Assembly (NCBI GenBank): GCA_963666285.1
Contig: OY762711.1
Direction: 5' to 3' (one strand)
Length of the DNA: 64,000 nt
DNA from: Sedimentisphaerales bacterium
Lineage (GTDB): Bacteria; Planctomycetota; Phycisphaerae; Sedimentisphaerales; SM23-30
Shown here piece by piece: positions 10,104 through 37,308 of the stretch. The position numbers and the translations under genes are program-made. Under the pieces are notes generated by a model that was not told the DNA's origin, made no database searches, and saw nothing but the letters and a program-made list of their open reading frames with translations. Within the stretch, counting starts at the first letter, position 1, and each line of letters begins with the position of its first letter.

Positions 10104-10123
10104 AATATAGGAGAAGAAAGAAG

Positions 10124-10360: not shown

Positions 10361-10383
10361 TAAAAAAGATAACCATCTCTCAT

Positions 10384-12130: not shown

Positions 12131-12133
12131 GGA

Positions 12134-12655
12134 ATGCATAAAAATAGTATGAACATTATGAATGAGTTATTAACTAACTATTTAAACAAGGAAGAATCTC
12201 TTTACATTGCAGACATAGGAAGCCTTGATGTTAATGGAACATATAAGACTCTTATCCCTAGTCAATGGACATATACAGGCTATGACATAGCCAAGGGAAA
12301 CAATGTAGATATAGTTATGAGTTCTCCCTTCTCTATCCCCGCCCCTGATAAGTCATATGATGTTGTTTTGTGCGGACAGGTAATAGAACATTGCTGTCAT
12401 CCTTTTAGGCTTATGGAAGATATTTACAGGATAACCAAGGACAATGGTTATGTGTTTGTTGTGGCTCCCTCTGTTTGTCCTGTACATAGGTACCCTAAAG
12501 ATTATTGGCGTATCTTTCCCGATGGAATGAAAGAACTATTAACTCAATCAGGGTTTGCTTGTTTAAATGTTTACGAGAGTCCCAGGAATGCCCTCAAAAG
12601 GATTTCTAAATATAGGATGATAGATTGTGTAGGCATAGGAAAGAAGGCTTTGTAG
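12134..12655 (+). CDS. Class I SAM-dependent methyltransferase (small-molecule/glycan type)
   Basis: IADIGSLDVNG, YDVVLCGQVIEH, HRYPKDYWR. Confidence 0.85.
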   Translation: MHKNSMNIMNELLTNYLNKEESLYIADIGSLDVNGTYKTLIPSQWTYTGYDIAKGNNVDIVMSSPFSIPAPDKSYDVVLCGQVIEHCCHPFRLMEDIYRITKDNGYVFVVAPSVCPVHRYPKDYWRIFPDGMKELLTQSGFACLNVYESPRNALKRISKYRMIDCVGIGKKAL

Positions 12656-12684
12656 GTTCTGTGAGAGCCATTAAAAGGGTAATT

Positions 12685-12765
12685 GGGGTATGGGGGGTAA
12701 AATCTCTAAGAGCCTAGAAAACCAAGACCGAAAGCCCCCATTTTCCGCGAAAAAATACCAGTTTT
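12685..12765 (+). promoter_or_regulatory. Probable cos (packaging) region
   Basis: GGGGGGTAAAATCTCTA...GACCG...GCCCCC...CGCGAAAAAA just upstream of terS, resembling the cos context of HNH/P27-type phages. Confidence 0.55.
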
Positions 12766-12803
12766 TCAGAGATAATAAATATTTTTATTAAAGGAAAATA
12801 AAT

Positions 12804-13178
12804 ATGGAAATACAAAAACTAAATAAAGACTTCATCCCTGAGGACCTCTCACCTGAAGAAGTTGAGGTATGGAATAAACTAGCTCCTCAACTGATTGAAC
12901 TAGAAATAATCAATTCTCTTAATTATTTAATTCTATCACGCTATTGTTCCTTGGCAGTTCTTAACATTCAACTAACAAAGAAATACCCAAACAACACACA
13001 GGGAATAAGACTAAGGAACCAAGAATTAAAAAAGATGGAAGAAGAGTTATGTTTAACTCCTCAGGCTTATAACAAATGGATGAAAGATAGATTGATAATT
13101 TCTGAAAGAAAGAAAAAGCAGGAAAAGGGAAATAATAATAGAAATATAGATGAAGATGATGAAAAGTTTTTCGGATAA
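12804..13178 (+). CDS. terS: Terminase small subunit (P27-like)
   Basis: PEDLSPEEVEVWNKLAPQL...LSRYC...ELCLTP; position before terL. Confidence 0.75.
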   Translation: MEIQKLNKDFIPEDLSPEEVEVWNKLAPQLIELEIINSLNYLILSRYCSLAVLNIQLTKKYPNNTQGIRLRNQELKKMEEELCLTPQAYNKWMKDRLIISERKKKQEKGNNNRNIDEDDEKFFG

Positions 13179-13650
13179 TAAATAAAATATTTAAACGGGG
13201 AAAAAATAGAATGAGTGTAAAAATTGATTGTGATGTTATGTTTCCAAGTTTTCAATGGCGAGATAATAAGAGAAGTAAAGAAGTCAGGGACAGGAGTTTC
13301 TACAGTAATATTATATTTATATCATAAAAAATGAGTGTGAATAAATCAGAAATAGACAACTTAATAGAATTGATTCCTAACTATTCTCCTACAGAAACAT
13401 CAGAAGAAGGAATGTATTTCGATTATGAAGAAGCTGAGAGAGTTTTAGACTTCTTCCAAAAACATCTTAAATATGTTAGAGGAGAGAAGGCAGGACAGCC
13501 TTTTGAACTAGAACCTTGGCAAAAATCAATCATTATAAATCTCTTTTCATGGAAAAAGATAAATGGGGAAAGAAGATATAGTCAATCATTTATTTTCATA
13601 CCAAGAAAGAATGGAAAGAGTTTTTTAGTTGCTGGTATTTTAACTTATAT

Positions 13651-14985
13651 CTGAACTTTTGCAAAATTAAAAAATTAACGTTAAAATGTGGTATAGACCG
13701 ATAAAATTTGATAGCAGAGCACTCCGAAAACCCAGAAAGGATTTTGGTATGCCAGCTATAGTACAATACCCTACAGTAGTCCAGCAAGCTGTCGATGAAT
13801 TTGGCGATCATTTTCAAAATGAGCCTGAACGTCGTCATTTTGCTGAGTATATCACCGGTCTTATCATTGCCCGCAAGAAAAACGTCTCTGCCATCAACAG
13901 GGAATTTGCATTTGCCTCTGATCAATCCTGTCTCAACCGGTTTCTCACCGATGTTGAATGGGACGAAGAATCGCTTAACACTGCCAGACTGGAGTGGCTG
14001 CAGAAAGACCCTAAAACCAGATATAGCGATTCTGGGGTTATTGCCCTTGATAATGTTCTGATAGACCATAGTGGTAAACATATTGAGGATGTAGGATATT
14101 TCTGGGATCATGCAGATCAACGTAATAAAATAGCCCATGATTACCTGATAGCCAATTATGTCTGTAATTCCGGGAAACATTATCCTTTGGAGTTTTACAG
14201 ATTTGTCAAAAAAGAAGATTGTCTGGAACGGGGCATTGAATTTCAGGATCATAATATCCTTTTCCGCAATCTGGTTGACTGGACTGTAGCTAACGATATT
14301 CCCGGTGACTTTACCTTCGATAGCTGGTTTACCCATAGCGACAACCTTAACCATATAAACCAGTATGAACGTAATTATGTTGGTGATTTGAAAACAAATC
14401 GTAAGACTATATTTCAGGGCAAAGTAATAAAGGCTGAAGAAGTAGCCAAATCTATTGACCCTGAAATCAAAAAACTCATAACTATTGGCAAGCATCGCCA
14501 ATATTACTTTACTAAAAGTATCAGGATTCCTGGTGTAGACCACAAAGTACGTATCCTGATTATCTGGCATAAAAAGAATGATATTGAACCTAAAAAGATT
14601 CTGGTTTGCAATCGATGCAACTGGGAAGCGATTCGTATCCTGAAGGTCTATCGCTGCCGCTGGCAAGGCACAGAGTGCTTTCATCGAGACGGCAAGCAGT
14701 ATTTGGGCATGGGCGACTGTCAGCTTAGAAGCGGCCTGGGTCAGACAAGACACATGTACATGGTGTTTCTGGCGTATAGCGTACTTTTGACTCAAATGCA
14801 GCAGAACCGTGTGTGTGAATGGGCACGAGAACGCCTGACGACCATAGGACAATCTTGTATGGCAGTTATGCGAGAAACTCTCAGCAATACAATCGCTTGG
14901 GTGGTTGATCAAATCGAATCCAACGGAACAAGTTTTAAACGTATTAAAGTACAATTAGCTTTACCCTAATTTTGCAAAAGTTCAG
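13651..14985 (+). mobile_element. IS701-like insertion sequence (1335 bp)
   Basis: Terminal inverted repeats CTGAACTTTTGCAAAATTA / TAATTTTGCAAAAGTTCAG; flanking direct repeat TTATAT (13645-13650, 14986-14991). Confidence 0.92.
13749..14969 (+). CDS. DDE transposase (IS701/DDE_5-like)
   Basis: IALDNVLIDHSGK, TFDSWF, YRCRWQGTECFHRDGKQYLG. Confidence 0.9.
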   Translation: MPAIVQYPTVVQQAVDEFGDHFQNEPERRHFAEYITGLIIARKKNVSAINREFAFASDQSCLNRFLTDVEWDEESLNTARLEWLQKDPKTRYSDSGVIALDNVLIDHSGKHIEDVGYFWDHADQRNKIAHDYLIANYVCNSGKHYPLEFYRFVKKEDCLERGIEFQDHNILFRNLVDWTVANDIPGDFTFDSWFTHSDNLNHINQYERNYVGDLKTNRKTIFQGKVIKAEEVAKSIDPEIKKLITIGKHRQYYFTKSIRIPGVDHKVRILIIWHKKNDIEPKKILVCNRCNWEAIRILKVYRCRWQGTECFHRDGKQYLGMGDCQLRSGLGQTRHMYMVFLAYSVLLTQMQQNRVCEWARERLTTIGQSCMAVMRETLSNTIAWVVDQIESNGTSFKRIKVQLALP

Positions 14986-16320
14986 TTATATATGTTATTG
15001 TGCTGGTGAGCCTGGGAGCCAGGTCTATAGTGCAGCAGCTTCAAGGGAACAGGCTTCCCTTATCTATAATGATATGGCAGCTATGATAGAGAGGAATCCT
15101 TCTCTCTCAAAGAGAGCCAATTTAACTAAAGCCTATAAAAAAATAGAAATTGAGTCTAAAGAGGAATGTGTTTTTAAGTCTCTTTCTTCTGAGGGAAAGG
15201 TTTTACATGGTCTAGATATATATGCACTATGTATAGATGAACTTCATTGTATCTCTGACAGGGAATATTTAGCGGCTCTCACAACGGCTCAGGGAGCAAG
15301 AAAGAACCCTCTTACTATATATATAACTACTGCTGGAGTCTATGAGCCTAATAGCCCTTGTTATGAGAAATATGATTATTCTAAAAAGATAATTGAGGGA
15401 GTTATTCAAGATTCTTCATTTCTCCCTGTTATATTTGAAGCTGATAAAAATATAGATTGGCGAGAAGAGGAAACATGGAAACAGGCTAATCCTAACTTGG
15501 GTGTTTCTGTATCATTAGATTATCTAAAAAAGAAATGTGAGGAAGCTAAAAACCTTCCTTCAGAAGAGAATAATTTTAAGAGACTCCACCTTAATCTATG
15601 GACAGAACAATTAGATAGATGGCTCCCTATGGAAAATTGGAATGAGTGTGATGAACTGCCTTCCAAGGATAATTCTATAAAATGGTATGGTGGTCTTGAT
15701 ATGTCTACAGTTACAGACTTATCTTCATTTGTTTTAGTGGGAGAAGATGAAGAAGGATATTTCCATGTTCATACTTGGGCGTTTATTCCCAAGGATAACA
15801 TAACAAGAAGAGAAGAAAGAGATAAGGTTCCCTTCTCTGTATGGGCTAAAGAAGGAAAGATAGAACTAACAGAAGGAAACTCAATAGACCATGATTATAT
15901 AAGGAAAAGAATAGGAGAGATTGCTGAAGAGTTTGAGATAAAAGAAATAGCAGTAGATAGAGCTAATGCAACTCAGATAATAACTCAACTAATGGGAGAT
16001 GGTTTTGAAATTGTCCCTCATGGACAAGGTTTTCTCTCTATGAGTTCTCCTTCAAAGTTTTTAGAAACTCTTCTATTGCAGAAGAAAATTAAACATGGAG
16101 GACAGCCTGTTTTAAGATGGTGCGCTAGTAATGTTACAGTTGAAACAGATGCTTGTGAAAACATAAAACCTTCTAAAAAGAAGTCAATAGAAAGAATTGA
16201 TAGTATTGTTGCCTTAGTTATGGCATTAGGGAGACTGATTTCAACTGAAATAGTTGAAGAAAAAGAATCTGTTTATGAGTCAAGAGGAATATTAAGTTTT
16301 TAAGATTGGGAAAAGGGAAT

Positions 16321-19300
16321 ATGGGAGACAAGGAAATAATTAAAATCAATAATAGAAATCCATTTGTTCAAAAAATAAATGAAGCTTCAAATCCTTATAA
16401 CAAGGGAAATAGTATATTCAATGTTAGAAAGAAACCATATGAAGAAGTTAAGGAAGAATTAGTTTCTGTTGTTATCCTGTCTAGAAATGAAGAATTTTTA
16501 TCTCAGACAATAAATAATATGTCTGAGCTGGCTGAGGGACCAATTGAGTTTGTTATAGTTTTGGACGGGGACTATGAACCTGAAAAGATAATTGATGTTA
16601 ATGAAACTCTTCACAGGTCTCATTCTATTCAGTTTGTTTGTAATAAAGAGCCACTAGGGAGAAGACCTTCTTCAAACCTTGGAGCAGAGAGAGCAAGAGG
16701 GAAATATCTTTTCCATTTAGATGCTCATTGCAAAACTGATTGTAAGGCATGGGACACATTACTTAAACAGTCTGTAACTACTCCTTCTACTATGGTTATT
16801 CCTTCCCTGAATAAACTTATTGTTCCTGAATATAAGCAAGTTGGGAATAGGAATGGACACAAGTATATAAGTGTCAATTTTAAGGACCAATGGTCCGGAA
16901 ATAAGGGAAGATATAACTTAGAACCTACTATAACAGGAAATGGAATGGGATGGTTTTTGACAAAGGAATATTATTTATCCTGTGGAGGTTGTGATGTTTC
17001 TTCTCCTGCTTATGTATGGGGAAACTTTGGTATAGAATGGGCTTTGAAAACTTGGCTATGTGATTTTGGTTTAGGAGCTGGACAGGTCCTTCTTACAACT
17101 GAAGTTGTCTTTGCTCATTTATGGCAAAAGAAACTTCCATATAAACAGCCAGGAATAGGGAAAGATAGAAACAGATTAAAAGAAATGTATCTTGATGGAA
17201 AAGCCCCTAATCAAGTTAGACCATTTTCATTCTTTGAAGAGAACCTTGGACACCTTCTCCCTAAAAATAAAGAGACACCTGAGAAACAGCCTTTAAGAGT
17301 TCTACAGGAAGAAACTGAACCTGATGTAACTGTCATTATGAATACTAACGGTCTTTATCCCGATTTGATTGAGGAAGCAATTCAATCATTTATAAATCAG
17401 GATTATCCAAATAAATATTTGAAAATAGTTTCAACTAATAAACATTTGAAACTTGATAGAGAATATGAAGATATAGAAATTATTTATGTTGAACCATTTG
17501 AAAGATTCCCACAACAGATTCAATATGCTTTGAAACAAGTTAAGACTCCTTATTGGTGTATTATGGATTCAGATGATGTTTTCAGTTCAGACCATATTTC
17601 TAAGCTAGTAAAAATAATGTTAAGGGAAAAGAAGAATGGATTAAAAAGCCCTTGTTATGTAGGGATTGATGGAGCCATAGAGCATTGGGTTAATAAAGGA
17701 ACTCCTAAACTTAGAAATAGAGGGTGGTGGTCTTGTCTTTATGATAGAGTTCCTGATGAAAAGATAGATGAAGTATTCAATGAGTTTCTTAATAAGAGAA
17801 ATAAGGACACAGGCTCAGACTTGCATTTTATAAAGAAAGATTTTTGGAATAAGAAACTAGTTCAAGGGAAAAAGACAGCCTATCACAGATTAGGAGTAGC
17901 TTTCCATATTAGAAATGAAAGATGGAAGGATAATTATTATAAAAACTCATTAGAGACTGTTAATAACTATGTTCCTCCTGTATTGGTTCCCAAATGGAAA
18001 AAGGATTATGATAAAATGATAAATGATTTTAATTATCCAAGAGTTACTTTGATTATGAACACTTTTCAAAGGGACATGAAGACTCTTCAAGAATCCATAT
18101 ATTCTTTCTTATGCCAGGATTACCCAAATAAGAAACTTCTGATAGTTAATTCTTCCCCAAAAAGATTAGTTCATAGAGGTTATTCTCCTGATGTTGAAGT
18201 TATAGATATTAAATCTTCTCACCATTTACAAGAGTTTAAGAATGCTTGTAAACACTTGATAGAGAATGCAGGAGATAATGAGTTCTTTTCTATTTTTGAT
18301 GATGATGATGTTTTAAAGCCTAATCATATTTCCCAAATGGTCCAAAATCTTCAGAAAAACAAGTTCAAATCTTGTATAAATAGAAACTATGTAGATTTCA
18401 ACATAAAAAGAAATTCGGGGAAAGAAGTATCTAAGCTTATGTGGTGGAATGGTATTTATCCTGTCTCTCTTTTAGAGACTATTAAATTAGGAACAGATTT
18501 AGAAGGCTTTGATAAGAGATTCATGGAACAGGCTAATCCTGTTGAATATGATGGAGAAGCAACATATATATGGCAAAGAGGAAATGTTATCCATGAATCC
18601 AAAACTAATAAAAACTCTCATGAAGAGAAATTAGATAGGATGAAGAGAGCTAAGGAAGAAGCTATGAACAGGAAAGATGATATCCCCGTTTATGTCAGAC
18701 CTTATATCCCTGATCCACCTATGATAACTGTTTGTATGGTTACTTATGGAAGTCATAAGGCTAAGACTGAAGAAGCTATTCAATCTTATATAAATCAATC
18801 ATATAAGTTTAAGAAATTACTAATTCTGAACACTCACAAGGACCCTATTAAGTTAGAAACTGAATATTCAGATATAGAGATTATAGAATTGCCTAATAAG
18901 AAGTTTAACTCTTTGGGAGAAAAACATGAATATCTAATAAATCAGGTAGATACTCCATATTGGACTGTTCTTGATGATGATGATATTATTCTCCCTTGGC
19001 ACCTTGAAACCTTGGCTTCTGCATTAGTTCATAATAGAGCTAGTTATGATAAGCCTTCACACAAGAGACCTTTATTAACAGGACATAATAGAAAGATTAT
19101 CTCCGTAGATAATAAGTATTCATATATAAAGAGTGGTTCAGGTTGGACCTGTCGAGTATTTGAGAAGTTGAGTCCTGATAAGGTAAGAGGGAAATTACAG
19201 AAGAAAATTAAGGGAACAAGTGAATGTAATTATGATGCTAGGTTCTGTTCTGGGAAATGGCACTCATTTATATTAAATTATCCTGTTCTTCCTTCTTATG

Positions 19301-20007
19301 TATGGAGAGGAGGAGGAGATAATTTCCATCTTTCAGCAGCAGGAGACACAGATGAAGTATTCAATAATGCTTTTAATAATGCTGAGGATGAAGCACAAAA
19401 AATAGATAATTCTTCTGTTTGGGTTCCTCATTGGGAAAAAGACTATGTTAAAGAGTTCTATTATTTTCTTAATATAGGAAGTCATAAACAAATATTTGGA
19501 AAGAATCATCATCATTTAAGACTAAGTTCCTCAGGAGCCATAAGGAAGAAAGAATTTCATTTCCTGAATGATTTCTGTAAAGAACATAATGTTAAGAATA
19601 TAGTTGAGTTTGGTTCAGGAGCCTCTACTCTCTCTTTCTCTTTGGAAGGATATAATATAACTTCCTATGAGACTAGTGAATATTGGCGTGACAGAGTTAG
19701 ACTATTCCTGAGTTATGACCCTATTAAAATGTGGGATGGAAAAGCATTTAAATTAGAAGAAGATGTAGATTTAGTTTTCATAGACGGTCCAGACCCTCCT
19801 GATTCAAGGGAAGAATCATTCAAGACAGCTATAACTAGTAATGCTAAATATATAGCTGCTCACGATGTATTCAGGCATATAGAGCAAAATTTTATTGAGA
19901 AATATCTTCTTCAGAATGGTTATAAGGAGATTGCAAAGATAGGACCAACAAAAGGAGTAAAAGGACCTAATAAACTAAGAGGGATAGGGATATATGGGAA
20001 AGAATAA
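16321..20007 (+). CDS. Multidomain glycosyltransferase: GALNT(GT27)-like GT-A domain, three GT2 domains, C-terminal SAM methyltransferase
   Basis: Domain 1 LFHLDAHC and VWGNFGIEWALKTWLC. Domains 2-4 each have (V/I)T(V/L)xMxT...xSF/YxxQxY..K.L.I and a DxD motif (DSDD, DDDD, DDDD). Domain 5 IVEFGSGAST...VDLVFIDGP. Confidence 0.88.
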   Translation: MGDKEIIKINNRNPFVQKINEASNPYNKGNSIFNVRKKPYEEVKEELVSVVILSRNEEFLSQTINNMSELAEGPIEFVIVLDGDYEPEKIIDVNETLHRSHSIQFVCNKEPLGRRPSSNLGAERARGKYLFHLDAHCKTDCKAWDTLLKQSVTTPSTMVIPSLNKLIVPEYKQVGNRNGHKYISVNFKDQWSGNKGRYNLEPTITGNGMGWFLTKEYYLSCGGCDVSSPAYVWGNFGIEWALKTWLCDFGLGAGQVLLTTEVVFAHLWQKKLPYKQPGIGKDRNRLKEMYLDGKAPNQVRPFSFFEENLGHLLPKNKETPEKQPLRVLQEETEPDVTVIMNTNGLYPDLIEEAIQSFINQDYPNKYLKIVSTNKHLKLDREYEDIEIIYVEPFERFPQQIQYALKQVKTPYWCIMDSDDVFSSDHISKLVKIMLREKKNGLKSPCYVGIDGAIEHWVNKGTPKLRNRGWWSCLYDRVPDEKIDEVFNEFLNKRNKDTGSDLHFIKKDFWNKKLVQGKKTAYHRLGVAFHIRNERWKDNYYKNSLETVNNYVPPVLVPKWKKDYDKMINDFNYPRVTLIMNTFQRDMKTLQESIYSFLCQDYPNKKLLIVNSSPKRLVHRGYSPDVEVIDIKSSHHLQEFKNACKHLIENAGDNEFFSIFDDDDVLKPNHISQMVQNLQKNKFKSCINRNYVDFNIKRNSGKEVSKLMWWNGIYPVSLLETIKLGTDLEGFDKRFMEQANPVEYDGEATYIWQRGNVIHESKTNKNSHEEKLDRMKRAKEEAMNRKDDIPVYVRPYIPDPPMITVCMVTYGSHKAKTEEAIQSYINQSYKFKKLLILNTHKDPIKLETEYSDIEIIELPNKKFNSLGEKHEYLINQVDTPYWTVLDDDDIILPWHLETLASALVHNRASYDKPSHKRPLLTGHNRKIISVDNKYSYIKSGSGWTCRVFEKLSPDKVRGKLQKKIKGTSECNYDARFCSGKWHSFILNYPVLPSYVWRGGGDNFHLSAAGDTDEVFNNAFNNAEDEAQKIDNSSVWVPHWEKDYVKEFYYFLNIGSHKQIFGKNHHHLRLSSSGAIRKKEFHFLNDFCKEHNVKNIVEFGSGASTLSFSLEGYNITSYETSEYWRDRVRLFLSYDPIKMWDGKAFKLEEDVDLVFIDGPDPPDSREESFKTAITSNAKYIAAHDVFRHIEQNFIEKYLLQNGYKEIAKIGPTKGVKGPNKLRGIGIYGKE

Positions 20008-20686
20008 GAAAGTTATATACACTTCTTATTTTGGGAATAGAGGAGGAATTATAGAACCTTCTTATATATCCCCAGGATGGGACTATGTATTTTTCACTGA
20101 CAACGAATATATATATGATTTGAGTAAGAAACATCTATTAACTTGGAAGATAGAATATATTCCTACTACTACAGAAGAAACAGACTCAGAAATTAGAGCA
20201 AAGTTCTATAAAATTGTTTCTCATGCCTTTTTTCCTGAGTATGAATATTCCATATATATAGATTCTGACAAATACAAGATAGATTGTAACCTTGATAGAT
20301 TTATAGAAAATACTCTTTCTCCTGATTCTGTTTTTGCTTCTTTGAAGCATAGAAAATGCGATTGCACATATAAAGAGATTGAGAGACAGAGAAAAAGAAA
20401 AAGGGATTTTGATAAAAACTTCGATGATATAAGGGATAGATGTATAGATTCAGGACTTCCTGAGCATTGGGGATTGAATGATAATTCTATAGTTGTAAGG
20501 AAACATTGTTCAGAATTATATATAGTTATGAATAATTGGTGGTTAGAAGTTGCTAAGTATTGCAAGCGAGACCAATGTTCCTTAATGAAGGTTTTATATG
20601 AATCAGGTCTTCCATTTAATCAGTTGGAATATGAAGGATTTAAGAATTATAAAACTATGAGATATTTGAGTAGAATCTCAAAATAA
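19994..20686 (+). CDS. DUF616 (TOD1/MUCI70-like) glycosyltransferase
   Basis: KVIYTSYFG, DYVFFTD, KFYKIVSHAFFPEYEYSIYID, KHRKCDCTYKE, WWLEV...RDQCSL. Confidence 0.82.
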   Translation: MGKNKKVIYTSYFGNRGGIIEPSYISPGWDYVFFTDNEYIYDLSKKHLLTWKIEYIPTTTEETDSEIRAKFYKIVSHAFFPEYEYSIYIDSDKYKIDCNLDRFIENTLSPDSVFASLKHRKCDCTYKEIERQRKRKRDFDKNFDDIRDRCIDSGLPEHWGLNDNSIVVRKHCSELYIVMNNWWLEVAKYCKRDQCSLMKVLYESGLPFNQLEYEGFKNYKTMRYLSRISK

Positions 20687-20779
20687 AAAAAGGGATTAGA
20701 GAAAATTGAGTGAATATATATGGAGAGGAGGAGAAGGACTCTCTCTATATAGATAGATAGAACAGGGATTCATATAAAT

Positions 20780-22336
20780 ATGTTCAAGAAAATACGTTCT
20801 TTTTTTGATGGCACAAAGAAAGCTGATACAGCCACTACAAAAACAATAACAAATCAGTGGTTCCCGTCTTCCTTGATTTCAGGGAATACAACTCATGGGG
20901 AAAATGTTTCTTATGGGAATGCTTTAACAATTTCAACAGTTTTTGCTTGTGTTAATGTGATTTCACAAGATACAGCAAAGGTCCCATTTTATTCATTTCA
21001 GAAGACAGACAAAGGAAAAGAGAGACAAAATAATAAAATATCTCATTTATTGAATTTTAGACCTAATCCTTTAATGTCTTCAATGGATTTCAGACAGACA
21101 CTTACAGCACATTGTTTAACTTATGGTAATGGCTATGCAGAAATTCAGAGAGACATAAATAATGAAATAACTGCTTTATGGATTCTCCCACCTGATAAAG
21201 TTAAGCCTGTTTTTAATGAGGAAAATAAGCTCATATATGAGATTCATTCTCATGGGAGGATTTCATATTTATATCCTGAAGAAATTATTCATATAAAAGG
21301 ACTAGGTTTTGATGGTTTCCAAGGTTATTCAGTGATTGCTTATGCTTCTCAGTCTTTGGGTTCTGCCCTAGCACAAGATAAATATGCAGGTTCTTTCTTT
21401 GGAAATGGAGCCTCTATGGGTGGATTCTTAGAACATCCTGGGAATATAACAGACAAAGCTCAAAAGAATCTCTTGGAGAGTGTAGAAAGAAGACATTTAG
21501 GAGCAGATAAAGCACATAGATTGTTATTGTTGGAAGAAGGAATGAAGTTTAATCAGGCTTCAATATCGCCTGAAGATTCACAATTATTACAATCAAGACA
21601 ATTCTCTATATCTGAAATATGCAGATGGTTTAGAGTTCCACCTCATAAGGTTTCAGACTTATCTAAAGCAACATTTTCTAATATAGAACAACAATCATTA
21701 GAATATGTCTGTGATACTCTAACTGCTTGGTTTAAGAGATGGGAACAGGAATTATGGTTTAAGTTGTTTGATGATGAAGAAAAAGAACAGGGATATTATG
21801 TTGAACATGTTATAGAAGGGTTATTAAGAGGAGATATAGGAGCAAGATATTCAGCTTATGCTACTGCTAGACAATGGGGTTGGTTAAGTGTAAATGATAT
21901 AAGGGAAAAAGAAAATATGAACCATATAGAAGGAGGAGATAAATATTTAGTTCCTCTTAATATGGTTGATGCCAATACAGTTAATACAGAAGAAACAACT
22001 GAGGAAGATTTAACTGGGGAAAAGATAAACAAACTATCTTTATCTAAAGACATTGCTGAAAGAATAGGAAGAGCAGAATTAAGGGAATTAGATAAACAAA
22101 TAAATAGAGAAGATTTTAATCCTGAATTATTTTCTGAATGGATGAATAAGTTCTATTCAAAACATAATGAATATGTAATTAAGACTCTTTCAATCTTTTC
22201 AGGTGAAATAGAACCTGATAATTTTACTATGAAAAAAGATTTAGAAGAATCTGAAAATAAACAAGGATTATTCAACACAAACAAAGAAACATATATAGAT
22301 AATTTAGAGAGTATGATTTATGGATTCATTAAATAA
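20780..22336 (+). CDS. Portal protein, HK97 family
   Basis: VFACVNVISQD, RPNPLM, YGNGYAEI, EIIHIKG, ICRWFRVPPH, FSNIEQQ. Confidence 0.95.
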   Translation: MFKKIRSFFDGTKKADTATTKTITNQWFPSSLISGNTTHGENVSYGNALTISTVFACVNVISQDTAKVPFYSFQKTDKGKERQNNKISHLLNFRPNPLMSSMDFRQTLTAHCLTYGNGYAEIQRDINNEITALWILPPDKVKPVFNEENKLIYEIHSHGRISYLYPEEIIHIKGLGFDGFQGYSVIAYASQSLGSALAQDKYAGSFFGNGASMGGFLEHPGNITDKAQKNLLESVERRHLGADKAHRLLLLEEGMKFNQASISPEDSQLLQSRQFSISEICRWFRVPPHKVSDLSKATFSNIEQQSLEYVCDTLTAWFKRWEQELWFKLFDDEEKEQGYYVEHVIEGLLRGDIGARYSAYATARQWGWLSVNDIREKENMNHIEGGDKYLVPLNMVDANTVNTEETTEEDLTGEKINKLSLSKDIAERIGRAELRELDKQINREDFNPELFSEWMNKFYSKHNEYVIKTLSIFSGEIEPDNFTMKKDLEESENKQGLFNTNKETYIDNLESMIYGFIK

Positions 22337-23156
22337 AAATACAATATGGGCTTTAATGCCTGAGTTTGATTTAGTTTCATTTTTTGGACAGGATAAAGAA
22401 GCCTTAACAAAAGAAGCTAGCTCAGGTTCTTCTTATTCAAAATCTGATAAAGTGGCTATACTTCCTCTATATGGAATGATAGTTCAGAAAGAATCTTGGA
22501 TAACTAAATATGGTTTAGGAACATCTACAGAAACATTCTCAAGATGGTTAGATATGGCTTTATCTGATAATTCTATAGGGAGAATAATAATAGATGTTAA
22601 TAGTCCAGGTGGTTCAGTTTATGGGGTTCAGGAACTATCAGACAAGATAAGGAACTCAAGAGGAAAGAAACCTATTGTAGCAATTGCTAATACACTTATG
22701 GCTTCTGCTGGCTATTGGGTAGCTAGTGCAGCAGACAAGATTTATGCTTCTCCTTCTGCTGATGTTGGTTCAGTGGGTGTTTATATGACTCATGCAGACT
22801 TTTCTGAGCAATTAGAGAAAGAAGGTGTAAAAGTTACATTTATATCAGCGGGAAAATATAAAGTAGAAGGAAATGCTTATGAACCTCTTCAGGAAGAAGC
22901 TAAAGCATATTTACAAAAATCTGTAGATGATACTTATGAAAGTTTCATTTCATCAGTTGCAAAGAATAGAAATACAACTAAATCAGATGTTATTGCTAAT
23001 TATGGTCAAGGAAGAGTTCTTTCTTCTAAGGATGCAATGAAGAATGGTTTAATAGATGGTGTTAAAACATTAGAAGAAGTTCTTAATATAAAAAGAATAA
23101 ACACTTTCAGCAAAAAAAAGGCTGAAATGGATATAGAGTTAAGGAAGTTAAAGTAA
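22320..23156 (+). CDS. Prohead protease, S49 (SppA-like) family
   Basis: DVNSPGGSV, MASAGYWVASAA, VGSVGV, AGKYK. Confidence 0.92.
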   Translation: MDSLNKNTIWALMPEFDLVSFFGQDKEALTKEASSGSSYSKSDKVAILPLYGMIVQKESWITKYGLGTSTETFSRWLDMALSDNSIGRIIIDVNSPGGSVYGVQELSDKIRNSRGKKPIVAIANTLMASAGYWVASAADKIYASPSADVGSVGVYMTHADFSEQLEKEGVKVTFISAGKYKVEGNAYEPLQEEAKAYLQKSVDDTYESFISSVAKNRNTTKSDVIANYGQGRVLSSKDAMKNGLIDGVKTLEEVLNIKRINTFSKKKAEMDIELRKLK

Positions 23157-23309
23157 ATAGTTATCTTTCTTACTTTTCACTCGGTAGAGGTTAAGGAGCT
23201 AGAGAATTATGAACAGAGACTTTGTGAATAATAATAATTTTAACAATAACTCAGAGAAGATGTAGAAGAAAAAGATGTAGATTGAAATCTTTGAGGGAGG
23301 ATTTTAATC

Positions 23310-24671: not shown

Positions 24672-24763
24672 TTAACTGGGTTTACTCCCTTTTTTCCTTA
24701 AAGAGTTGGGAGCCTATGGTTCCCTTCTCTGCAAGGAATCACTAGGGACAAGGAAGGGAATAT

Positions 24764-25354: not shown

Positions 25355-25369
25355 GGGAAAAGGGAAATA

Positions 25370-27253: not shown

Positions 27254-28528
27254 GGGGGATAAATGGCAACATTTGAATTAGGCTCATTAGGCTCTTCCTT
27301 ACTAGAGGTAAGAGAAGGGACAGGAACCTTAGAACAATTATATCAGGATTTTTATACAGCTGCTGGAAATGCTGAAACATATATGAGTAAGACAGGTTCA
27401 GACCCTTATACTTATTCTATTCATGGAAACAGGGAATTAGAATTAGAAAGTGGAGTTACACTAAACATTACTAATACAGGTGATACTCTTCAATGGGATT
27501 CAAGAACAGGAAGTGACTCTCCTGTAATAGACCACCAAAGAGGAGCAGTATTAAATATAGGAGAAGGAGTAACTATAGATTTTGATACTTCTATTACTAG
27601 AACTTGGTATTCAATTTCTTATTTTGAAGGAACAACTAATTTCCAAGGGACAAGTTCAAATCCTATTACATTAAAGAATCTGTTCTCACTTTACATATAT
27701 AATAGAGAAGGAGAACTTCACACTTGGGACTATGTAAATATAGAGGATGGGAGCTACTCTACTTATAATGGATTGTTACAGTTATATTATACTAATAATT
27801 CTCAGAATGAGAACTCATTCACTAATATCTATATATCTGAAACTATTTCTCCAACTACTTCTTCTGCAAGAGGATTAGGATTAGCTATATATGGGGATTG
27901 GTCCAAAACAACATTAAATAATATAACTATAGATGGAACTTATTATGGAGCCAAGTTTGAAGGAGCTATATGTAAACTTTCTAATTTAACTATTAAGAAT
28001 ACTTATGGAGACCCTATATATGATACTTATAATTGCGGTTGGCTTCCTAAGTGGTATTATAACCCAGACATAGCCAATGAAGATTCAATGTTTTACAATT
28101 CCTTCAATCAGCCTAAAGTTACATTTGACAATTGCACCTTCCAAGACAATAAACAATCAGGAGGAAACTATCAGTTCTATTATTCTAAAGCTAGCATAAT
28201 AAAACTTAAAGATTGCACTTTTTCTTATACATTAGGAGGAGTTTCAGGGAGAGGGATATCTAGTTATTATGGAACTAAATGTCTATTAGAAGGAACTCAG
28301 ACATATAACAATATCTCTATAGATAGATACTGGTATTATAATGGTTCTATACATTGGACAAAGACTTTAGATTTAACTGTTGAAGATGTTTCAGGGAACC
28401 CTATAGAAGGAGCCTCAATAACTATTCAACAATCTCAAGGATATGAAAGAGAAACTCTCTATTCAGATTCTAATGGAGAAGTATTAGATGTATTTGGAGA
28501 TTTACCTGTTTTTGTTGAGAAAATAGAA

Positions 28529-29955
28529 GTAAACTTTCGCATTTTTTATAGTGTATTTAAGCCGCTGGAGCCAGAGCATCCAGCAGAAACGTATATTTTT
28601 TATCATGAACGGCCGAATTACCGAACATATATTTAATTCTTTCACTCCAAAGTTCCCTTCGGAGGTCAGCGATAGCATCGGCGAAGCTCGGAGTCTCTTT
28701 GTGTTGATACCATGGCTGAACAAAGAAGTATTGTTCATTGGGTTTCTTGGTCAGATACCTCAACCAGACCATCGAGTACAGCCAGAGTCCAAGACCAGCG
28801 GCTCTTTCTGGTCCTTTGCCCTTATATGTCTGCAGCTGTTGAACACCGAGCAGCTGTTTAGTGTTCTTGAACGTATCTTCAATAGCCCAGCGATCGGCAT
28901 AACAGGTCAAAACTTCCTCAGGCGCCATAGTAATATCTGTCGTAAAGAAAAAGTCATCTTTTTCCTTACCTTCAGGGTCTCTACATATAACAACAAGGAT
29001 TGGTTTGCGAGTTACCTTATACCAGAGAGCAATACGAGTATAAACCAGCCTTTCAATAATCGTACCTCTCTGACTAAACTCAACTGTTCTCCAATTTCTG
29101 ATATGGGCAGCCATTTTTTCCAACTTAGCCAGTTTTTGCCCTCTACAGCGAGGTCTGCCACGGGTTTTCTCTTTAACTTTAGGCGGCAGCTCAAACAGAT
29201 CGGCATTACGCCTGATTCGAGAGATAATGGTAACATTCTCAAGATTCTTTCCAGCCAGAGTAGCATAAAACCCGTCTGCTACAAGCCTTATACGCCTGTT
29301 TGGAAGCCATTGGCATATTTCATTAATGATTTGTACCGCCAGTTCAATCAAGGATTCTTCTCCTTTGCGATGCAACCGCATATTGACCGGCAGTGCCAGA
29401 GGTTCGCCACCCCAAGATGGTTGAATTTGCAGACACGTTACTACCAAATTCAAACCCCAGGCATATACTATTCTTTTCTTGGTAGAACGAACGGCATCTC
29501 TCCAGAATCCGGCTCCATGGACTTTTGGACCGCTTCGATGAAACAGGGTGTCGTCCATGGACAGAGTGATTGTTCCTTTGGGACAGAATCTTTGAACCAT
29601 AATCAGGGTGAGCATCTTCCACATCCGGCTCAGAGACCAGCGGCAATCTGGAAAGAAACGATGATATGCATCGTGAGCTCGTTCGCCCAGCGGGTCTGCG
29701 TAGGGTATTATGCCTGTTATCGTGCGGCGAGTAGTGCACAATATCCAACCAATTACCACCCGGCAGAAGATTTGTGCCCCCGGCTCTGTAAAAATTGGAA
29801 AAAATTGTTGAATAAATTGCGTCCATGTCGAATAATATTGATAGTACATATCGGCCTCCGTGTCCTATTGTTATCAATCATTAAAGACATCGGATCGCCG
29901 ATATTTTTTTGTTTATATTTTCAAATTTTAACCCTCAAAAAGTGCGAAAGTTTAC
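28529..29955 (-). mobile_element. IS701-like insertion sequence (1427 bp)
   Basis: Inverted repeats GTAAACTTTCGCATTTTTT / AAAAAGTGCGAAAGTTTAC; direct repeat TAGAA (28524-28528, 29956-29960). Confidence 0.92.
28557..29849 (-). CDS. DDE transposase (IS701/DDE_5-like)
   Basis: LSMDDTL, LVADGFY, YADRWAIEDTFKNTKQLLG. Confidence 0.9.
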   Translation of the reverse strand: MYYQYYSTWTQFIQQFFPIFTEPGAQIFCRVVIGWILCTTRRTITGIIPYADPLGERAHDAYHRFFPDCRWSLSRMWKMLTLIMVQRFCPKGTITLSMDDTLFHRSGPKVHGAGFWRDAVRSTKKRIVYAWGLNLVVTCLQIQPSWGGEPLALPVNMRLHRKGEESLIELAVQIINEICQWLPNRRIRLVADGFYATLAGKNLENVTIISRIRRNADLFELPPKVKEKTRGRPRCRGQKLAKLEKMAAHIRNWRTVEFSQRGTIIERLVYTRIALWYKVTRKPILVVICRDPEGKEKDDFFFTTDITMAPEEVLTCYADRWAIEDTFKNTKQLLGVQQLQTYKGKGPERAAGLGLWLYSMVWLRYLTKKPNEQYFFVQPWYQHKETPSFADAIADLRRELWSERIKYMFGNSAVHDKKYTFLLDALAPAA

Positions 29956-30152
29956 TAGAAACCTCATTAAATAATTATACTAATTGGTCTGATTCAATTT
30001 CTTCAGGCAGATATCATTTAATTACTATCTCAAAGGAAGGATTTCAGACATGGACAAGGAAAGTAGAGTTCACTTCTGATTTAACTATTACAGCAAAATT
30101 AAATTCTGAAATTGGAACAAGGAATATTGCTCAATAAAGGAGAAATATATAT

Positions 30153-31750: not shown

Positions 31751-31822
31751 AGAAGGACTTTTTTAAGTTCTTCAGAATATAAGATTGAGAAAATTGAGTT
31801 ATCCTTTTAGGAGGGATTTTAC

Positions 31823-32218: not shown

Positions 32219-32244
32219 CAATTAAATAAAAAGGGAGATTTAGA

Positions 32245-34301: not shown

Positions 34302-34310
34302 GGAGGGATA

Positions 34311-35126
34311 ATGGCAACAGTTAATTGGAACTTAATAGAAGGTGAGACTGCAACTCTAAATAGAGAAGGATGGACAGCAACAAGAGGGATAATAGTTTCT
34401 GATATAGGTTCTTCCTATGAAGGACAGGAAAAAATATATAGAGGTTTTCAATCTCTTGGAGTAGAAATAGGTGAGCGTCATCCTACTTATCCTTATTCTT
34501 ATCTTCAATCTGTTTCAGGGACAGCTTTATCTAGTGACATAGTTAAATATGATTTAACTTATGAACCTATGAAAAATGTTCCTCCTGAAATAACTGTTTC
34601 AGGTAAATTAGCTTCAGTTCAAACTAATTTAGATGTTTCAGGGGACCCTATAACAGTTAGTTATACTTTTCCTAGTGACTATAAACATGACCCAAACAGG
34701 GCTAATCAAACTGACACAGTAACAAAACAATTAAATAAAAGTATCCCTTCTGCAACTATTACAGTTAAAAGAAGGGAAATAATAACAGGTTCTCAATTAG
34801 CTGAGAGAGCCTTATATTATGAAGGAACTGTTAATAATTCAGGATGGAATATAAGACCTTATGATGATGCTAACACTTGGATGTGTTCAACTATAGACGG
34901 TCAATTAGCAGGCTATATACTAGATGGTTCTTTATATTATGTATATGATACTGTTTATGTATGGGAGTATCAGTCTGAAGGATGGAATCAGAAGATTATA
35001 TATGTGGACCCTAATACTGGGGACCCTGTTCCACCTGATGCAGAAGGGAATTATCCTCCTGAGACTAATAAAGAAGTTATATTATATCCTCAGATAGATT
35101 TTAGCCCTCTAACGATAGATTTATAA
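34311..35126 (+). CDS. Putative tail tip/hub protein
   Basis: Follows the tape measure gene; beta-rich; GERHP motif. Function inferred from position only. Confidence 0.55.
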   Translation: MATVNWNLIEGETATLNREGWTATRGIIVSDIGSSYEGQEKIYRGFQSLGVEIGERHPTYPYSYLQSVSGTALSSDIVKYDLTYEPMKNVPPEITVSGKLASVQTNLDVSGDPITVSYTFPSDYKHDPNRANQTDTVTKQLNKSIPSATITVKRREIITGSQLAERALYYEGTVNNSGWNIRPYDDANTWMCSTIDGQLAGYILDGSLYYVYDTVYVWEYQSEGWNQKIIYVDPNTGDPVPPDAEGNYPPETNKEVILYPQIDFSPLTIDL

Positions 35127-35147
35127 TAAGGAAAAAGGGAGAAATAA

Positions 35148-36614
35148 ATGATTAAAAGATTCAGAAGAGGAGGAACAGAAGAAGCCCTTAATAACCTGAA
35201 TAAGATGGTTGATACTTGTAATGATTATAATAATGTATCAACTAATCAGGGTTCTTTGTCACCTTTTAAATCTTCCCCGAAAATATATTATGGGAGAATA
35301 GTTACAGAACTAGGAGATGATGGTTATTTCCTTGGGACTTTTTTTGATGGAATGGGAAATCCTGTTTTAGATGATTCTCCATTCTATGAACAGCCTATCT
35401 ATTGTTGTATAAGTGAACAGCCTAATGTAGAAATAGAAAATGTTTTTGTTGCTATTAGGAACCCATACAATTATGAATGGTATTGTTTGGCTATTTATCC
35501 TGCCGAATATGAATCTTCTATCTCTTCTTCTATTAGTGAGAGTTGGAGTTCAGAGAGTGGCTCAAGTGACACAGAAAGCTCTGAGACTCAATCTAAGAGT
35601 AGTTCAGTTAGTTCTGATAGTTCTATTACCTCTGAGAGTGATAGTAGCACAGAGGAGACTTCATTTAGCTCAGAATCAACTTCAGATAGTTCTTTTGATA
35701 CTTCAGATAGTTCTGATGGGACAAGTGATTCTTCTGTAACTTCATCAGGCTCATCTTATGAAACCTCTGATAGTAGTTCAGGGGGAACTTCAGATAGTTC
35801 ATTTGAAACATCAGGAAGCAGTTCAGAAGGTACTAGTGAAAGCAGTTTTGAGACTTCTGATTCATCATATGAGACTTCAGGCAGTAGCACAGAAGTTAGT
35901 TCAGGCTCTTCAGATGTAACAAGTGGAAGTTCATATGAGACTTCAGGAAGCTCTGATGAAACTAGTGGTTCATCCTACGAAACTTCAGACTCTTCTGATG
36001 CTACAAGTGGGAGCAGCACACAAGATAACTCATCCTCTGAAAACTCTAATACAGAAAACTCTGTAACAGAAGATTCTCACTCATTTAGTTCTATAAGTGA
36101 GGGTAGTTTAACATTTATATCTCTTTCAGGTTCCTCAGAATCTTGGGATGATAGTTCTAGTTCTTCAGATAATAGTTCTTCTTCTGATGATTCTTCGGGA
36201 AGTAGCACAGATAGTTCAGGCTCATCAGATGGTAGTTCAGGAAGCTCAGACTCATCAGGTTCTTCAGAAAGTTCAGGTAGTAGTGATGGTAGTTCAGGTT
36301 CTTCAGGCAGTTCAGATAGTTCAAACTCTTCTAACTCATCAGGCAGTTCTGATAGTTCTGATGATGCTTCTACACCACCTCCTCCACCTCCTTCTTCAGA
36401 TGAACCTCATCATCATCATTTAGGATTGTTTATATTTAGAATATTTACAGAAGAAGAAAAACAAGAAATATATGCAAGATGTAAAGATGCTCTAAAAGAT
36501 GTTAAAAAAGAGGACATGGAAGATAAGCTAATTGAATTAGTTATAAACAATAAACTTACTGCTGATGAAGCCTTAATTGTAGCAATAAAGGAAGGTATAG
36601 CAATTGACTCTTAA
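35148..36614 (+). CDS. Mucin-like Ser-rich protein at the tail-tip/fibre position
   Basis: ~120-aa globular N-terminus, ~285-aa Ser/Thr/Glu/Asp/Gly tract, PPPPPP and HHHH, helical C-terminus. Confidence 0.8.
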   Translation: MIKRFRRGGTEEALNNLNKMVDTCNDYNNVSTNQGSLSPFKSSPKIYYGRIVTELGDDGYFLGTFFDGMGNPVLDDSPFYEQPIYCCISEQPNVEIENVFVAIRNPYNYEWYCLAIYPAEYESSISSSISESWSSESGSSDTESSETQSKSSSVSSDSSITSESDSSTEETSFSSESTSDSSFDTSDSSDGTSDSSVTSSGSSYETSDSSSGGTSDSSFETSGSSSEGTSESSFETSDSSYETSGSSTEVSSGSSDVTSGSSYETSGSSDETSGSSYETSDSSDATSGSSTQDNSSSENSNTENSVTEDSHSFSSISEGSLTFISLSGSSESWDDSSSSSDNSSSSDDSSGSSTDSSGSSDGSSGSSDSSGSSESSGSSDGSSGSSGSSDSSNSSNSSGSSDSSDDASTPPPPPPSSDEPHHHHLGLFIFRIFTEEEKQEIYARCKDALKDVKKEDMEDKLIELVINNKLTADEALIVAIKEGIAIDS

Positions 36615-37308
36615 AAGCTTGCTTAAATTAGCTAGCTATAAGGGAACTGATTTTTTTGATAAAGAATCTATTGGTTTAATAGCTAGAGGACCTTCTTCTA
36701 AGGCTATAGAGGAATGTAATAATAAGTTTAACCATTGTTTCTTGGCGGGAGAGTTTAATAACAACATAGATAAAATAGGAGTGTATCTAAAGAATAAAGA
36801 TATAGTTTTGAGTATTGTTCAGACAGGAAGATATAGAACTCCTCCTGATAAGTGTAAAAGATATAATATTAAAAATGTTCAAATAATTCACCAATATGGA
36901 ACCTCAAATTATTATGAGAGTGTGAAAAGATTTTTAGACATTAAAGTAGTGGGATATACAGAACATCAGGTATTAGAAGCAAAAGAAATATTTAAAGAAG
37001 ATATGGAATGTAAATATGGGATATGGACAACAGGGATAGCTGGTCTTTTCCATGCTTCATATTTTAGACCTAAGAAATTATATGTTATGGGAATAGATTT
37101 CTATAATGAAGATAAGGATAAATATTCAATCCCTGAGGACCATGATATCTTAGATGATACTGTAGAAATATCTGCTGAAAGAATGAGAGATGGAATGTTA
37201 AAGAATTTCTATTCTATATGTGATTTCTATTCAGATGTTGAATATATAGTCTATACAACATTCCCAGGAATTAAGAGTGGGAAAAACATAAAAGTTATAG
37301 AAATATAA
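36604..37308 (+). CDS. Cst-II (GT42)/Maf-like nonulosonic-acid transferase-like protein
   Basis: IGLIARGPSS (compare IAGNGPSL) and TTGIAGLFHASYFRPKKLYVMGIDFY (compare TSGVYM...GYKEIYLSGIDFY). Confidence 0.6.
   Translation: MTLKSLLKLASYKGTDFFDKESIGLIARGPSSKAIEECNNKFNHCFLAGEFNNNIDKIGVYLKNKDIVLSIVQTGRYRTPPDKCKRYNIKNVQIIHQYGTSNYYESVKRFLDIKVVGYTEHQVLEAKEIFKEDMECKYGIWTTGIAGLFHASYFRPKKLYVMGIDFYNEDKDKYSIPEDHDILDDTVEISAERMRDGMLKNFYSICDFYSDVEYIVYTTFPGIKSGKNIKVIEI

Follow-up and report, generated by a model that had tools for sequence, protein, structure and literature searches.

Why should a prophage keep a set of sugar-transferring enzymes among the genes that build its virion, and what do these enzymes glycosylate? 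The question is raised by a 64,000-nucleotide stretch of the genome of a Sedimentisphaerales bacterium (assembly GCA_963666285.1, contig OY762711.1), here called the window, which corresponds to G000:C1:2144001–2208000 of a 6.35-Mb genome and contains an integrated temperate prophage of siphovirus type with an HK97-type late operon. Within this operon, a five-domain polyprotein combining glycosyltransferase (GT) and methyltransferase domains is encoded between the genes for the large terminase (TerL) and the portal, and a protein with a long poly-Ser tract is encoded in the tail module. A preliminary description of the window had interpreted these genes as a mucin-type O-glycosylation system for the virion. 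Every feature that it had located was found in place by translation, Pfam and fold checks, and the enzyme identities and the pairing of the GT with the Ser-rich tail gene hold up, whereas the label 'mucin-type' does not. Judging from homology and gene neighbourhood, we consider it rather probable that the phage encodes cytoplasmic O-glycosylation of its own Ser-rich tail protein, nearer to that of bacterial serine-rich repeat proteins (SRRPs) than to true mucin glycosylation.

Domain architecture of the polyprotein

The polyprotein and its parts are the following.

16306–20007, plus strand: GT-methyltransferase polyprotein, a 1233-codon frame between TerL and portal (Pfam Glycos_transf_2)
Residues 54–297: domain 1, GT27-like GT-A
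About residues 340–560, 578–790 and 806–1035: domains 2–4, GT2
About residues 1075–1233: last domain, S-adenosylmethionine (SAM) methyltransferase fold

Counted from the ATG at 16321, the protein has 1228 residues, the same length as the protein on record. Pfam identifies four Glycos_transf_2 stretches (E 1.6e-31); three of the four GT pieces exceed the gathering score singly, and the fourth, which was cut inside the domain, reaches 15 bits. Pfam classes domain 1 under Glycos_transf_2 only. Compared with all PDB sequences, however, the polyprotein gave ten matches over residues 54–297, all ten to polypeptide N-acetylgalactosaminyltransferases (ppGalNAc-transferases; best E 2.6e-6), and an alignment of about 245 residues relates domain 1 to GalNAc-T1, T2, T9, T10 and T12. 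A profile of six five-domain homologues returned 14 PDB matches, 11 of them ppGalNAc-transferases; its top match, 5hea 'GalT1', which we take to be an enzyme of an SRRP glycosylation pathway, covers residues 35–184 only.

The D-x-H metal-binding motif is present in domain 1, where H-L-D139-A-H141-C pairs with LDAHC of the GalNAc-transferases. Furthermore, W238-G239-N-F-G-I-E244 pairs with WGGENIE, with W, G and E invariant and a different middle (we take WGGENxE to be the Gal/GalNAc-T motif), and H271, in FAHLW, pairs with the His of GHVFR. None of the 12 family members deviates at D139, H141 or H271. The ten PDB matches and the aligned D-x-H...H residues are in agreement with a GT27-like first domain, and from this likeness we infer that domain 1 is a putative initiator acting on Ser. 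There is no Pfam match to a ricin/lectin domain on the polyprotein, and domain 1 leads into further GT2 domains. The chromosome carries two prophages related to that of the window, one of them only about 3 kb upstream of it; all three paralogues keep the DSDD motif of domain 2, whose three Asp residues recur unchanged in every one of the 12 family members. Family proteins that possess domains 3 and 4 keep the DDDD motifs there.

No Pfam model scores above threshold for the C-terminal domain (best E 0.097). An AlphaFold 2 (AF2) model of the last 194 residues, with a predicted local distance difference test score (pLDDT) of 76, gave 373 Foldseek matches in the PDB at E ≤ 0.001, the top ones all being class I SAM methyltransferases, O-methyltransferase-like; according to this model the domain has the class I SAM methyltransferase fold. 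Its glycine-rich motif EFG(S/C)GAS is invariant in six sequences. Stand-alone relatives were not returned by a word-based search, a method that says little.

The Ser-rich tail-module protein

The proposed acceptor is encoded downstream, next to a conserved partner.

34311–35126, plus strand: tail protein of 271 residues, directly after the tape measure; conserved partner upstream of the Ser-rich gene
35148–36614, plus strand: Ser-rich tail-module protein of 488 residues, proposed glycan acceptor (translation, composition)

The Ser-rich protein consists of a 121-residue N-domain ending in WYC(L/T)(A/G)IY, a poly-Ser tract (residues 122–408), a run of six Pro and a helical C-terminus. The 287 residues of the tract comprise 144 Ser (50%), 30 Asp, 26 Thr, 25 Glu and 25 Gly. 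Its Ser codons include 41 TCT, 45 TCA and 43 AGT, and the TCN and AGY boxes are mixed in all six tracts inspected; because both boxes are used, the tract appears to have been selected as protein rather than to be an artefact of a DNA repeat. Genome-wide, only four of 3746 stop-to-stop frames of at least 200 residues reach at least 40% Ser in a 150-residue window, and three of the four are the homologous proteins of the three prophages. The preliminary description had singled out two Ser/Thr-rich proteins, 25370–27253 and 35148–36614; both are present, and the Ser content of the latter is above chance by this count. The term 'mucin-type' is an overstatement, since these poly-Ser tracts are acidic, with little Thr and almost no Pro, and in this respect are nearer to bacterial SRRPs than to the PTS domains of mucins.

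The fourth Ser-rich frame, G000:C1:3904393–3905298 (L019 1393–2298), encodes 302 residues without a Pfam match and lies outside the prophages looked at.

In each of the three prophages a single gene lies between the tape measure and the Ser-rich gene. Since Pfam and PHROGs return nothing for the Ser-rich protein or the surrounding tail proteins in any locus, its placement at the tail tip is inferred from position. In two of the loci described below (L010 and L013), the Ser-rich module forms the C-terminal third of a protein of about 1150 residues, and a language-model Atlas places the N-terminus of this protein, with a score of 0.91 and 145 features in common, near 'prophage endopeptidase tail / Tal' clusters, a placement that we treat as a lead only. 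The partner protein 34311–35126, likewise without a Pfam or PHROG match, has homologues in both paralogous prophages (37–39% identity) and in L008 (911–1765; 26%, E 8e-18), where it again precedes the Ser-rich gene. A kinship between this family and the N-termini of the L010 and L013 fusion proteins was considered and rejected on profile–profile comparison (probability 0.08, no relation).

Pairing of the GT gene with the Ser-rich gene

The multi-GT family comprises 13 clusters in a collection of 5.8 billion clusters, and was detected in 2 of 401 genomes of the phylum, i.e., this genome and one with a weak generic match. Neither the polyprotein nor its domain 1 had a tblastn match in 50,697 GenBank phage records, and scans of IMG/VR with GT alignments gave one weak single-domain relative (L004), then nothing. 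Pattern scans for DNA of the family recovered five metagenome loci and one locus (L013) in a Phycisphaerae metagenome-assembled genome. In every locus with readable upstream DNA, the Ser-rich gene is found immediately upstream of the GT gene.

L008: Ser-rich 1762–3159, GT 3141–5708, directly abutting
L009: Ser-rich 1–1098, GT 1080–3647, directly abutting
L012: Ser-rich 519–1994, GT 1976–4645, directly abutting
L010: Ser-rich 2011–5496, GT 5520–7907, directly abutting
L013: Ser-rich 6246–9686, GT 9686–10846, directly abutting

L011, which has 190 nucleotides of upstream DNA only, was excluded from the count. In the three prophages of this genome both genes are present, about 15 kb apart. As L008 and L009 are almost the same sequence, and likewise L001 and L002, the loci represent six lineages, four with abutting genes and two (this genome) with the genes about 15 kb apart. 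The co-occurrence that the preliminary description had proposed to look for is thus seen for the tail protein, in five loci with the Ser-rich gene directly upstream of the GT and in all three prophages. That the pairing persists despite the change in gene order is the strongest argument at hand for a functional link.

The eight Ser-rich proteins share one architecture: a domain with the end motif W-(Y/W)-C-(T/L)-(A/G)-I-(Y/W/F) is followed by 160–290 residues containing 36–65% Ser and by a variable, often Cys-rich, C-terminal domain; in L010 the end motif has A for C. A hidden Markov model (HMM) of the N-domain (window, L001 and L012) matches residues 698–797 of the L013 protein (E 9e-11), and the N-domain is homologous among the window, L001/L002, L012 and L013; L010 is marginal, and L008 and L009 share the terminal motif only. 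An IMG/VR scan with the N-domain found nothing, and a word-based search with it came back blank, missing even the window's own protein, and is uninformative.

On the enzyme side, the conserved core of the family is domain 1 plus domain 2. The part that follows varies, and consists of GT2-GT2-methyltransferase, GT2-Methyltransf_24, GT9, or GT9-methyltransferase. Behind the GT, L009 and L012 carry a class I methyltransferase gene and L011 a rhamnosyltransferase gene. Several members (P0010, P0012–P0016, L008 3141–5708 and L012 1976–4645) have Cys-rich N-terminal extensions of 90–170 residues, and in these a GT9 (heptosyltransferase-like) module replaces domains 3–5. GT9-like enzymes heptosylate Ser residues of autotransporter adhesins.

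No enzyme or acceptor of the system contains a hydrophobic 19-mer above 1.3 on the Kyte–Doolittle scale, compared with 2.4 for the holin-like product of the gene at 37392, and the glycosylation enzymes are predicted to be soluble, without a membrane segment. Because they would be soluble and are encoded within the late operon, they should act in the cytoplasm on nucleotide sugars during virion assembly.

These observations bear on a different substrate. By lysogenic conversion, the GTs would alter a host surface glycan (lipopolysaccharide (LPS), capsule, exopolysaccharide or a cell-envelope glycoprotein) and thereby keep out superinfecting phages, with the Ser-rich protein as an unglycosylated flexible linker. 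The element is indeed a temperate prophage with an integrase, modules of the GT2, GT9 and Rhamno_transf kinds are typical for polysaccharide synthesis, and the GT genes of L013 lie at the prophage end beside the integrase, a typical position for a 'moron'. However, the cassette is without a membrane segment and, by Pfam, contains no flippase, polymerase or lipid-carrier GT; the GT genes are embedded between TerL and portal with overlapping ends, in a row of genes from TerL through portal that all overlap or abut; and the best structural relatives of domain 1 are protein O-GalNAc-transferases. Lysogenic conversion would also leave the direct pairing with a Ser-rich gene in five loci unexplained, and we regard it as unlikely.

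A Cst-II/Maf-fold protein behind the Ser-rich gene

In the window prophage, the gene that overlaps the stop of the Ser-rich gene within the tail module encodes a further transferase-like protein.

36604–37308, plus strand: putative ulosonic-acid transferase of GT42/Maf fold (Cst-II-like), 234 residues (AF2 model, Foldseek, VIA)

The single sequence has no match in Pfam, NCBIfam, PHROGs or PDB sequences. An exhaustive HMMER search of representatives found 54 relatives, and an AF2 model based on 46 aligned relatives reached a pLDDT of 92.5. The six best PDB matches of this model in Foldseek are Cst-II and Cst-I (E 2e-4 to 1e-3, TM 0.46–0.58). VIA-align gave Z 13.3 for Cst-II (root-mean-square deviation 3.7 over 196 residues), 13.2 for Cst-I, 12.0 for the Magnetospirillum Maf glycosyltransferase 5mu5 and 11.3 for the Pasteurella sialyltransferase 9c08; SteA, HPPK and ST8SiaIII follow at 8–9.7, and all other folds are below 5. 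The family profile compared with the PDB also matched the CMP-Neu5Ac sialyltransferase 9c08 (E 7e-4), across TG...GxDFY. PF01973 is weakly matched by 4 of the 46 relatives (best E 6.7e-4). Conserved in the family are RGxS (28–31), TG (143–144), GxDFY (163–167), Y174 and N228. At the level of the modelled fold, the identity of 36604–37308 as a Cst-II/Maf-type protein is confirmed. With the four GT domains of the polyprotein (Pfam), this protein (Z 12.0–13.3 for Cst-II and Maf) and the DUF616 protein described in the next section (45.7 bits), the six GT-like domains of the preliminary description are accounted for.

Among the genes of the host are one of the NeuB family (E 1.3e-78) and two of CTP_transf_3 type, and on the strength of these genes a cytidine monophosphate (CMP)-activated ulosonic acid donor is plausible in the host. 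The Cst-II-like protein is the sole member of its family in the genome and the related loci; an IMG/VR scan with the family found nothing, and tblastn against the 50,697 phage records gave no match. Two genes in comparable positions, a 203-residue one behind the GTs in L013 and a 372-residue one behind the Ser-rich gene of the neighbouring prophage, were ruled out as Cst-II-like on comparison. The latter, which occupies the slot of the window's Cst-II-like gene, encodes a Cys-rich protein of no known family.

Other enzymes in the late operon

Two further enzyme genes belong to the same operon.

19994–20686, plus strand: TOD1/MUCI70 (DUF616) glycosyltransferase-like protein, 230 residues (PF04765, E 7.1e-12, 45.7 bits, cut-off 21.4)
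12134–12655, plus strand: class I SAM methyltransferase of small-molecule/protein type, 173 residues (Methyltransf_23 E 1e-9, Methyltransf_11 E 2.2e-9)

The start of the TOD1/MUCI70-like gene overlaps the stop of the polyprotein gene, and its product matches phrog_26101 (glycosyltransferase). The gene is present in all three prophages, with paralogues 36% identical; the one in L001 scores 16.6 bits only. The methyltransferase gene lies upstream of that for the small terminase (TerS) and matches phrog_32762 (SAM-dependent methyltransferase); it has no paralogue in the other two prophages of the genome. A specific kinship with the methyltransferases encoded behind the GT of L009 and L012 was not upheld, the similarity being generic only (E 0.01–0.02). 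Together with the C-terminus of the polyprotein (Foldseek), 12134–12655 (Pfam) makes up the two methyltransferase domains not of DNA type that had been noted earlier.

Might the enzymes instead glycosylate phage DNA, creating hypermodified bases against restriction? Phages are known to glycosylate DNA, and the prophage carries two DNA methylases (5418–7468). However, no hydroxymethylase or thymidylate-synthase-like gene is found among the 46 open reading frames (ORFs) of the window that were scanned, a multi-domain GT-A enzyme fused to a sugar-type methyltransferase and paired with a Ser-rich protein fits DNA poorly as a substrate, and the element is temperate and replicates with its host. We consider DNA glycosylation extremely improbable.

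A collagen-like neck protein

The second Ser/Thr-rich protein belongs to the head–tail connection.

25370–27253, plus strand: head-completion (Hc1) protein with collagen-like extension (Phage_HCP E 2e-19; Collagen E 7.9e-17)

The Hc1 domain occupies residues 1–105 and is followed by two G-X-S tracts (171–233 and 338–404), after each of which comes a repeated domain of about 100 residues. PHROGs assigns the protein to phrog_25 (head closure) and to collagen-like tail fibre phrogs. Only residues 1–103 are shared with the other two prophages, in which the collagen-like extension is absent. The extension is probably a neck fibre and would put trimeric fibres on the neck; that it serves as a second glycan acceptor is speculative.

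Other virion proteins, i.e., the capsid, the tail tube or this neck fibre, could be the principal acceptors in the manner of actinobacteriophages, with the Ser tract not the main one. In the prophages of this genome the GT genes do lie beside portal and capsid genes and not beside tail genes, the head-completion protein of the window carries Ser/Thr-rich collagen-like tracts, and a passage in PMC13313380 reports that actinobacteriophage virions are glycosylated. On the other hand, the paralogous prophages keep their GTs without a collagen extension, and in four other lineages the GT abuts the Ser-rich gene and not head genes. That such proteins replace the Ser tract as main acceptor seems quite unlikely to us; besides the tail protein, the capsid, the tail tube or the neck may also be glycosylated.

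Proposed pathway

For O-glycosylation of the Ser-rich tail protein we propose the following roles; the order initiate–extend–cap–methylate of the preliminary description is hypothetical. Domain 1, with its D139-x-H141...H271 residues, would put the first sugar on Ser. The chain would be lengthened by the GT2 domains 2–4 and the TOD1/MUCI70-like protein, and the C-terminal methyltransferase domain, perhaps also the 12134 methyltransferase, would methylate a sugar. In the window prophage only, the Cst-II/Maf-fold protein may add a CMP-activated ulosonic acid, capping the chain with it or linking it directly to Ser. The Ser tract of 35148–36614 would thus be glycosylated in the host cytoplasm prior to tail assembly, which would yield a glycan brush that is stiff and resists proteases, a stalk that links the tail-anchoring N-domain to the variable C-terminal domain.

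Several points weigh against this proposal. Only six lineages were inspected, with L008/L009 and L001/L002 as near-duplicates, and L004, a distant relative with a single domain, is not accompanied by a Ser-rich gene. Domain 1 resembles GT27 only remotely (E about 1e-6) and lacks the lectin domain, and most enzymes of the GT2, GT9 and rhamnosyltransferase families make polysaccharides or LPS. It is by synteny and a single language-model lead that the Ser-rich protein is assigned to the virion. Three parts, the Cst-II-like protein, the 12134 methyltransferase and the collagen-like extension, are peculiar to the window prophage, and comparison among loci does not tie them to the pathway; moreover, among 46 sequences of the Cst-II-like family no His reaches 60% conservation, and the catalytic base of Cst-II is His188. 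Finally, given the insertions described below, the glycosylation system of the window prophage may be a relic.

A more specific picture, to which we give somewhat less than an even chance, is that of a glycan bottle-brush at the tail tip of a planctomycete phage, with a poly-Ser stalk, an assembly-line enzyme, an initiator that is kin to the mucin GalNAc-transferases of animals and, in the window prophage, a sialic-acid-like and methyl finish. If true, the mucin/SRRP principle would have arisen independently a third time, here in a virus, for host recognition or for shielding of a receptor-binding device.

State of this prophage copy

Two insertion sequence (IS) elements interrupt the late operon.

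13651–14979, plus strand: IS element of 1.33 kb (DDE transposase 13686–14969), inside the large terminase gene
28529–29957, minus strand: IS element of 1.43 kb (transposase 28557–29849; DDE_5 E 7.3e-22)

The first splits TerL into an N-part (13331–13654) and a C-part (14972–16303), with positions 1–41 and 50–177 of the TerL_ATPase profile on separate ORFs, and is present in five genomic copies at ≥99.7% identity. The second, with a GC content of 0.405 compared with about 0.33 around it, truncates the 3′ end of the gene 27263–28636, the next after the collagen-like neck protein; it has eight genomic copies, the seven further ones being 100% identical. The plus-strand ORF 28551–30137 (528 residues) was rejected as a gene, being an antisense shadow of this transposase. 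Contigs from two sequencing runs break at both IS elements (at 13651 and 14979 for the one in TerL), and none joins across an IS. Because of these insertions, one of them in TerL, the window prophage is probably defective and unable to package DNA or to make particles. The two paralogous prophages (C1:2122001–2142372 and C1:967001–987000) have an intact TerL of 536 residues and are the better experimental subjects.

Prophage setting and neighbouring genes

The prophage corresponds to an AT-rich region (about 1–40041, GC about 0.32–0.35), beyond which GC climbs to 0.46 in host genes.

38650–40041, minus strand: tyrosine integrase gene, closing the AT-rich prophage region

According to Pfam and PHROGs, the late operon follows the order HNH, TerS, TerL, portal, S49 protease, capsid, adaptor, head completion, gp10-like, tail terminator, tail tube, chaperones and a tape measure of 464 residues. 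A scan of 11500–24000 for promoters and terminators gave counts no higher than the shuffled level.

Upstream of the late operon, 5418–7468 contains two adjoining DNA methylase genes (N6_Mtase-like and N6_N4_Mtase), each with DUF3102 at the N-terminus, preceded by a gene (1171–4140) for a right-handed beta-helix protein of 989 residues without a PHROG match, which may be a tailspike or surface 'moron'. The interval between the neighbouring prophages (L018, G000:C1:2141001–2146000; window 1–457) holds a PIN-domain gene and small minus-strand ORFs. Just before the integrase, 37392–38541 encodes a holin-like small protein with one strongly hydrophobic segment, overlapping a papain-family C1 peptidase; this gene couple is a possible peptidase-type lysis pair. 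Host genes from 40771 on include VTC, efflux parts, a PEP-CTERM gene, GH115 and, at 45503–51832, a gene for a 2109-residue LTD/CotH protein with four lamin-tail domains, LamG, a CotH kinase-like domain and Ig-like parts.

Comparison with known glycosylation systems

As the enzyme comes with its own putative acceptor, the system is directly testable by co-expression of two to five genes. If the proposal is true, a bacterial virus can use a GT27-like enzyme to start O-glycans on protein, tailoring modules (GT2, GT9 and methyltransferases) are swapped among phages in a modular multi-GT 'assembly line', and glycosylated poly-Ser can form a tail-tip stalk. Soluble, cytoplasmic O-glycosyltransferases that are paired with their substrate are wanted for glyco-engineering of mucin-like polymers in bacteria.

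The closest parallel is provided by the SRRPs of Gram-positive bacteria, e.g., GspB, Fap1 and PsrP. Passages in PMC5578698 and PMC6973325 describe a Ser-rich acceptor, with Ser residues numbering in the hundreds, that is encoded beside several GTs and O-glycosylated stepwise in the cytoplasm, and intracellular glycosylation of serine-rich repeat proteins is likewise stated in a passage of PMC5578698. Both systems pair the gene of an acidic, low-complexity Ser-rich acceptor with GT genes. They differ in the initiator, which in SRRPs is the GT-B pair GtfA/GtfB and in the prophage would be the GT-A, GT27-like domain, and in the fate of the acceptor, since SRRPs are cell-wall adhesins exported by an accessory Sec system, whereas the prophage has no export system and its acceptor belongs to the phage tail module. 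Pfam families for the GtfA/GtfB pair and the accessory Sec genes were not found among the 46 scanned ORFs of the window.

Compared with the ppGalNAc-transferases (GT27) of animals, domain 1 shares the D-x-H motif and aligns with their W-G...E stretch and downstream His, and in both cases the acceptor is a dense Ser tract. The prophage domain is, however, a remote relative without a ricin-type lectin domain or a membrane anchor, and its tract is poor in Thr and Pro.

Maf enzymes, according to passages in PMC11339370 and 10.1101/2020.06.03.131540, O-link nonulosonic acids or Kdo to Ser/Thr, for example of flagellin, in the cytoplasm. The fold and the GxDFY core are common to Maf, Cst-I/Cst-II (GT42; PF01973, PF06002) and the 36604–37308 protein, but the latter is minimal (234 residues), lacks accessory domains, stays below the Pfam threshold and has no invariant His.

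Multi-domain enzymes of this kind are also described for a chlorovirus. A passage in PMC7826918 presents PBCV-1 A064R as a GT-GT-methyltransferase that acts on the capsid glycan, and A111/114R as a protein with three GT domains. Like the polyprotein, A064R is a single viral polypeptide with several GT domains and a methyltransferase, which in A064R acts on sugar; the likeness is one of architecture. The chlorovirus differs in being a giant virus of eukaryotes, and the glycans on its major capsid protein are N-linked.

Actinobacteriophages decorate their own virions by means of phage-encoded GTs, sometimes with a methyltransferase, and the prophage likewise has its GT genes in or beside the structural genes. 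To our knowledge, phage virion glycosylation is documented mainly for this group. The acceptors in the work of Freeman et al. 2023 (Cell Host Microbe) are reportedly capsid and tail-tube subunits, with no dedicated poly-Ser protein, whereas the prophage has a dedicated poly-Ser partner gene. Full-text literature searches, with most subscription journals outside their coverage, found no description of a phage GT27-like enzyme or of a glycosylated Ser-rich phage tail protein. Phage-encoded virion glycosylation is itself known; new with respect to the literature searched is the combination of a GT27-like putative initiator, set in a modular multi-GT enzyme, with a dedicated poly-Ser tail protein.

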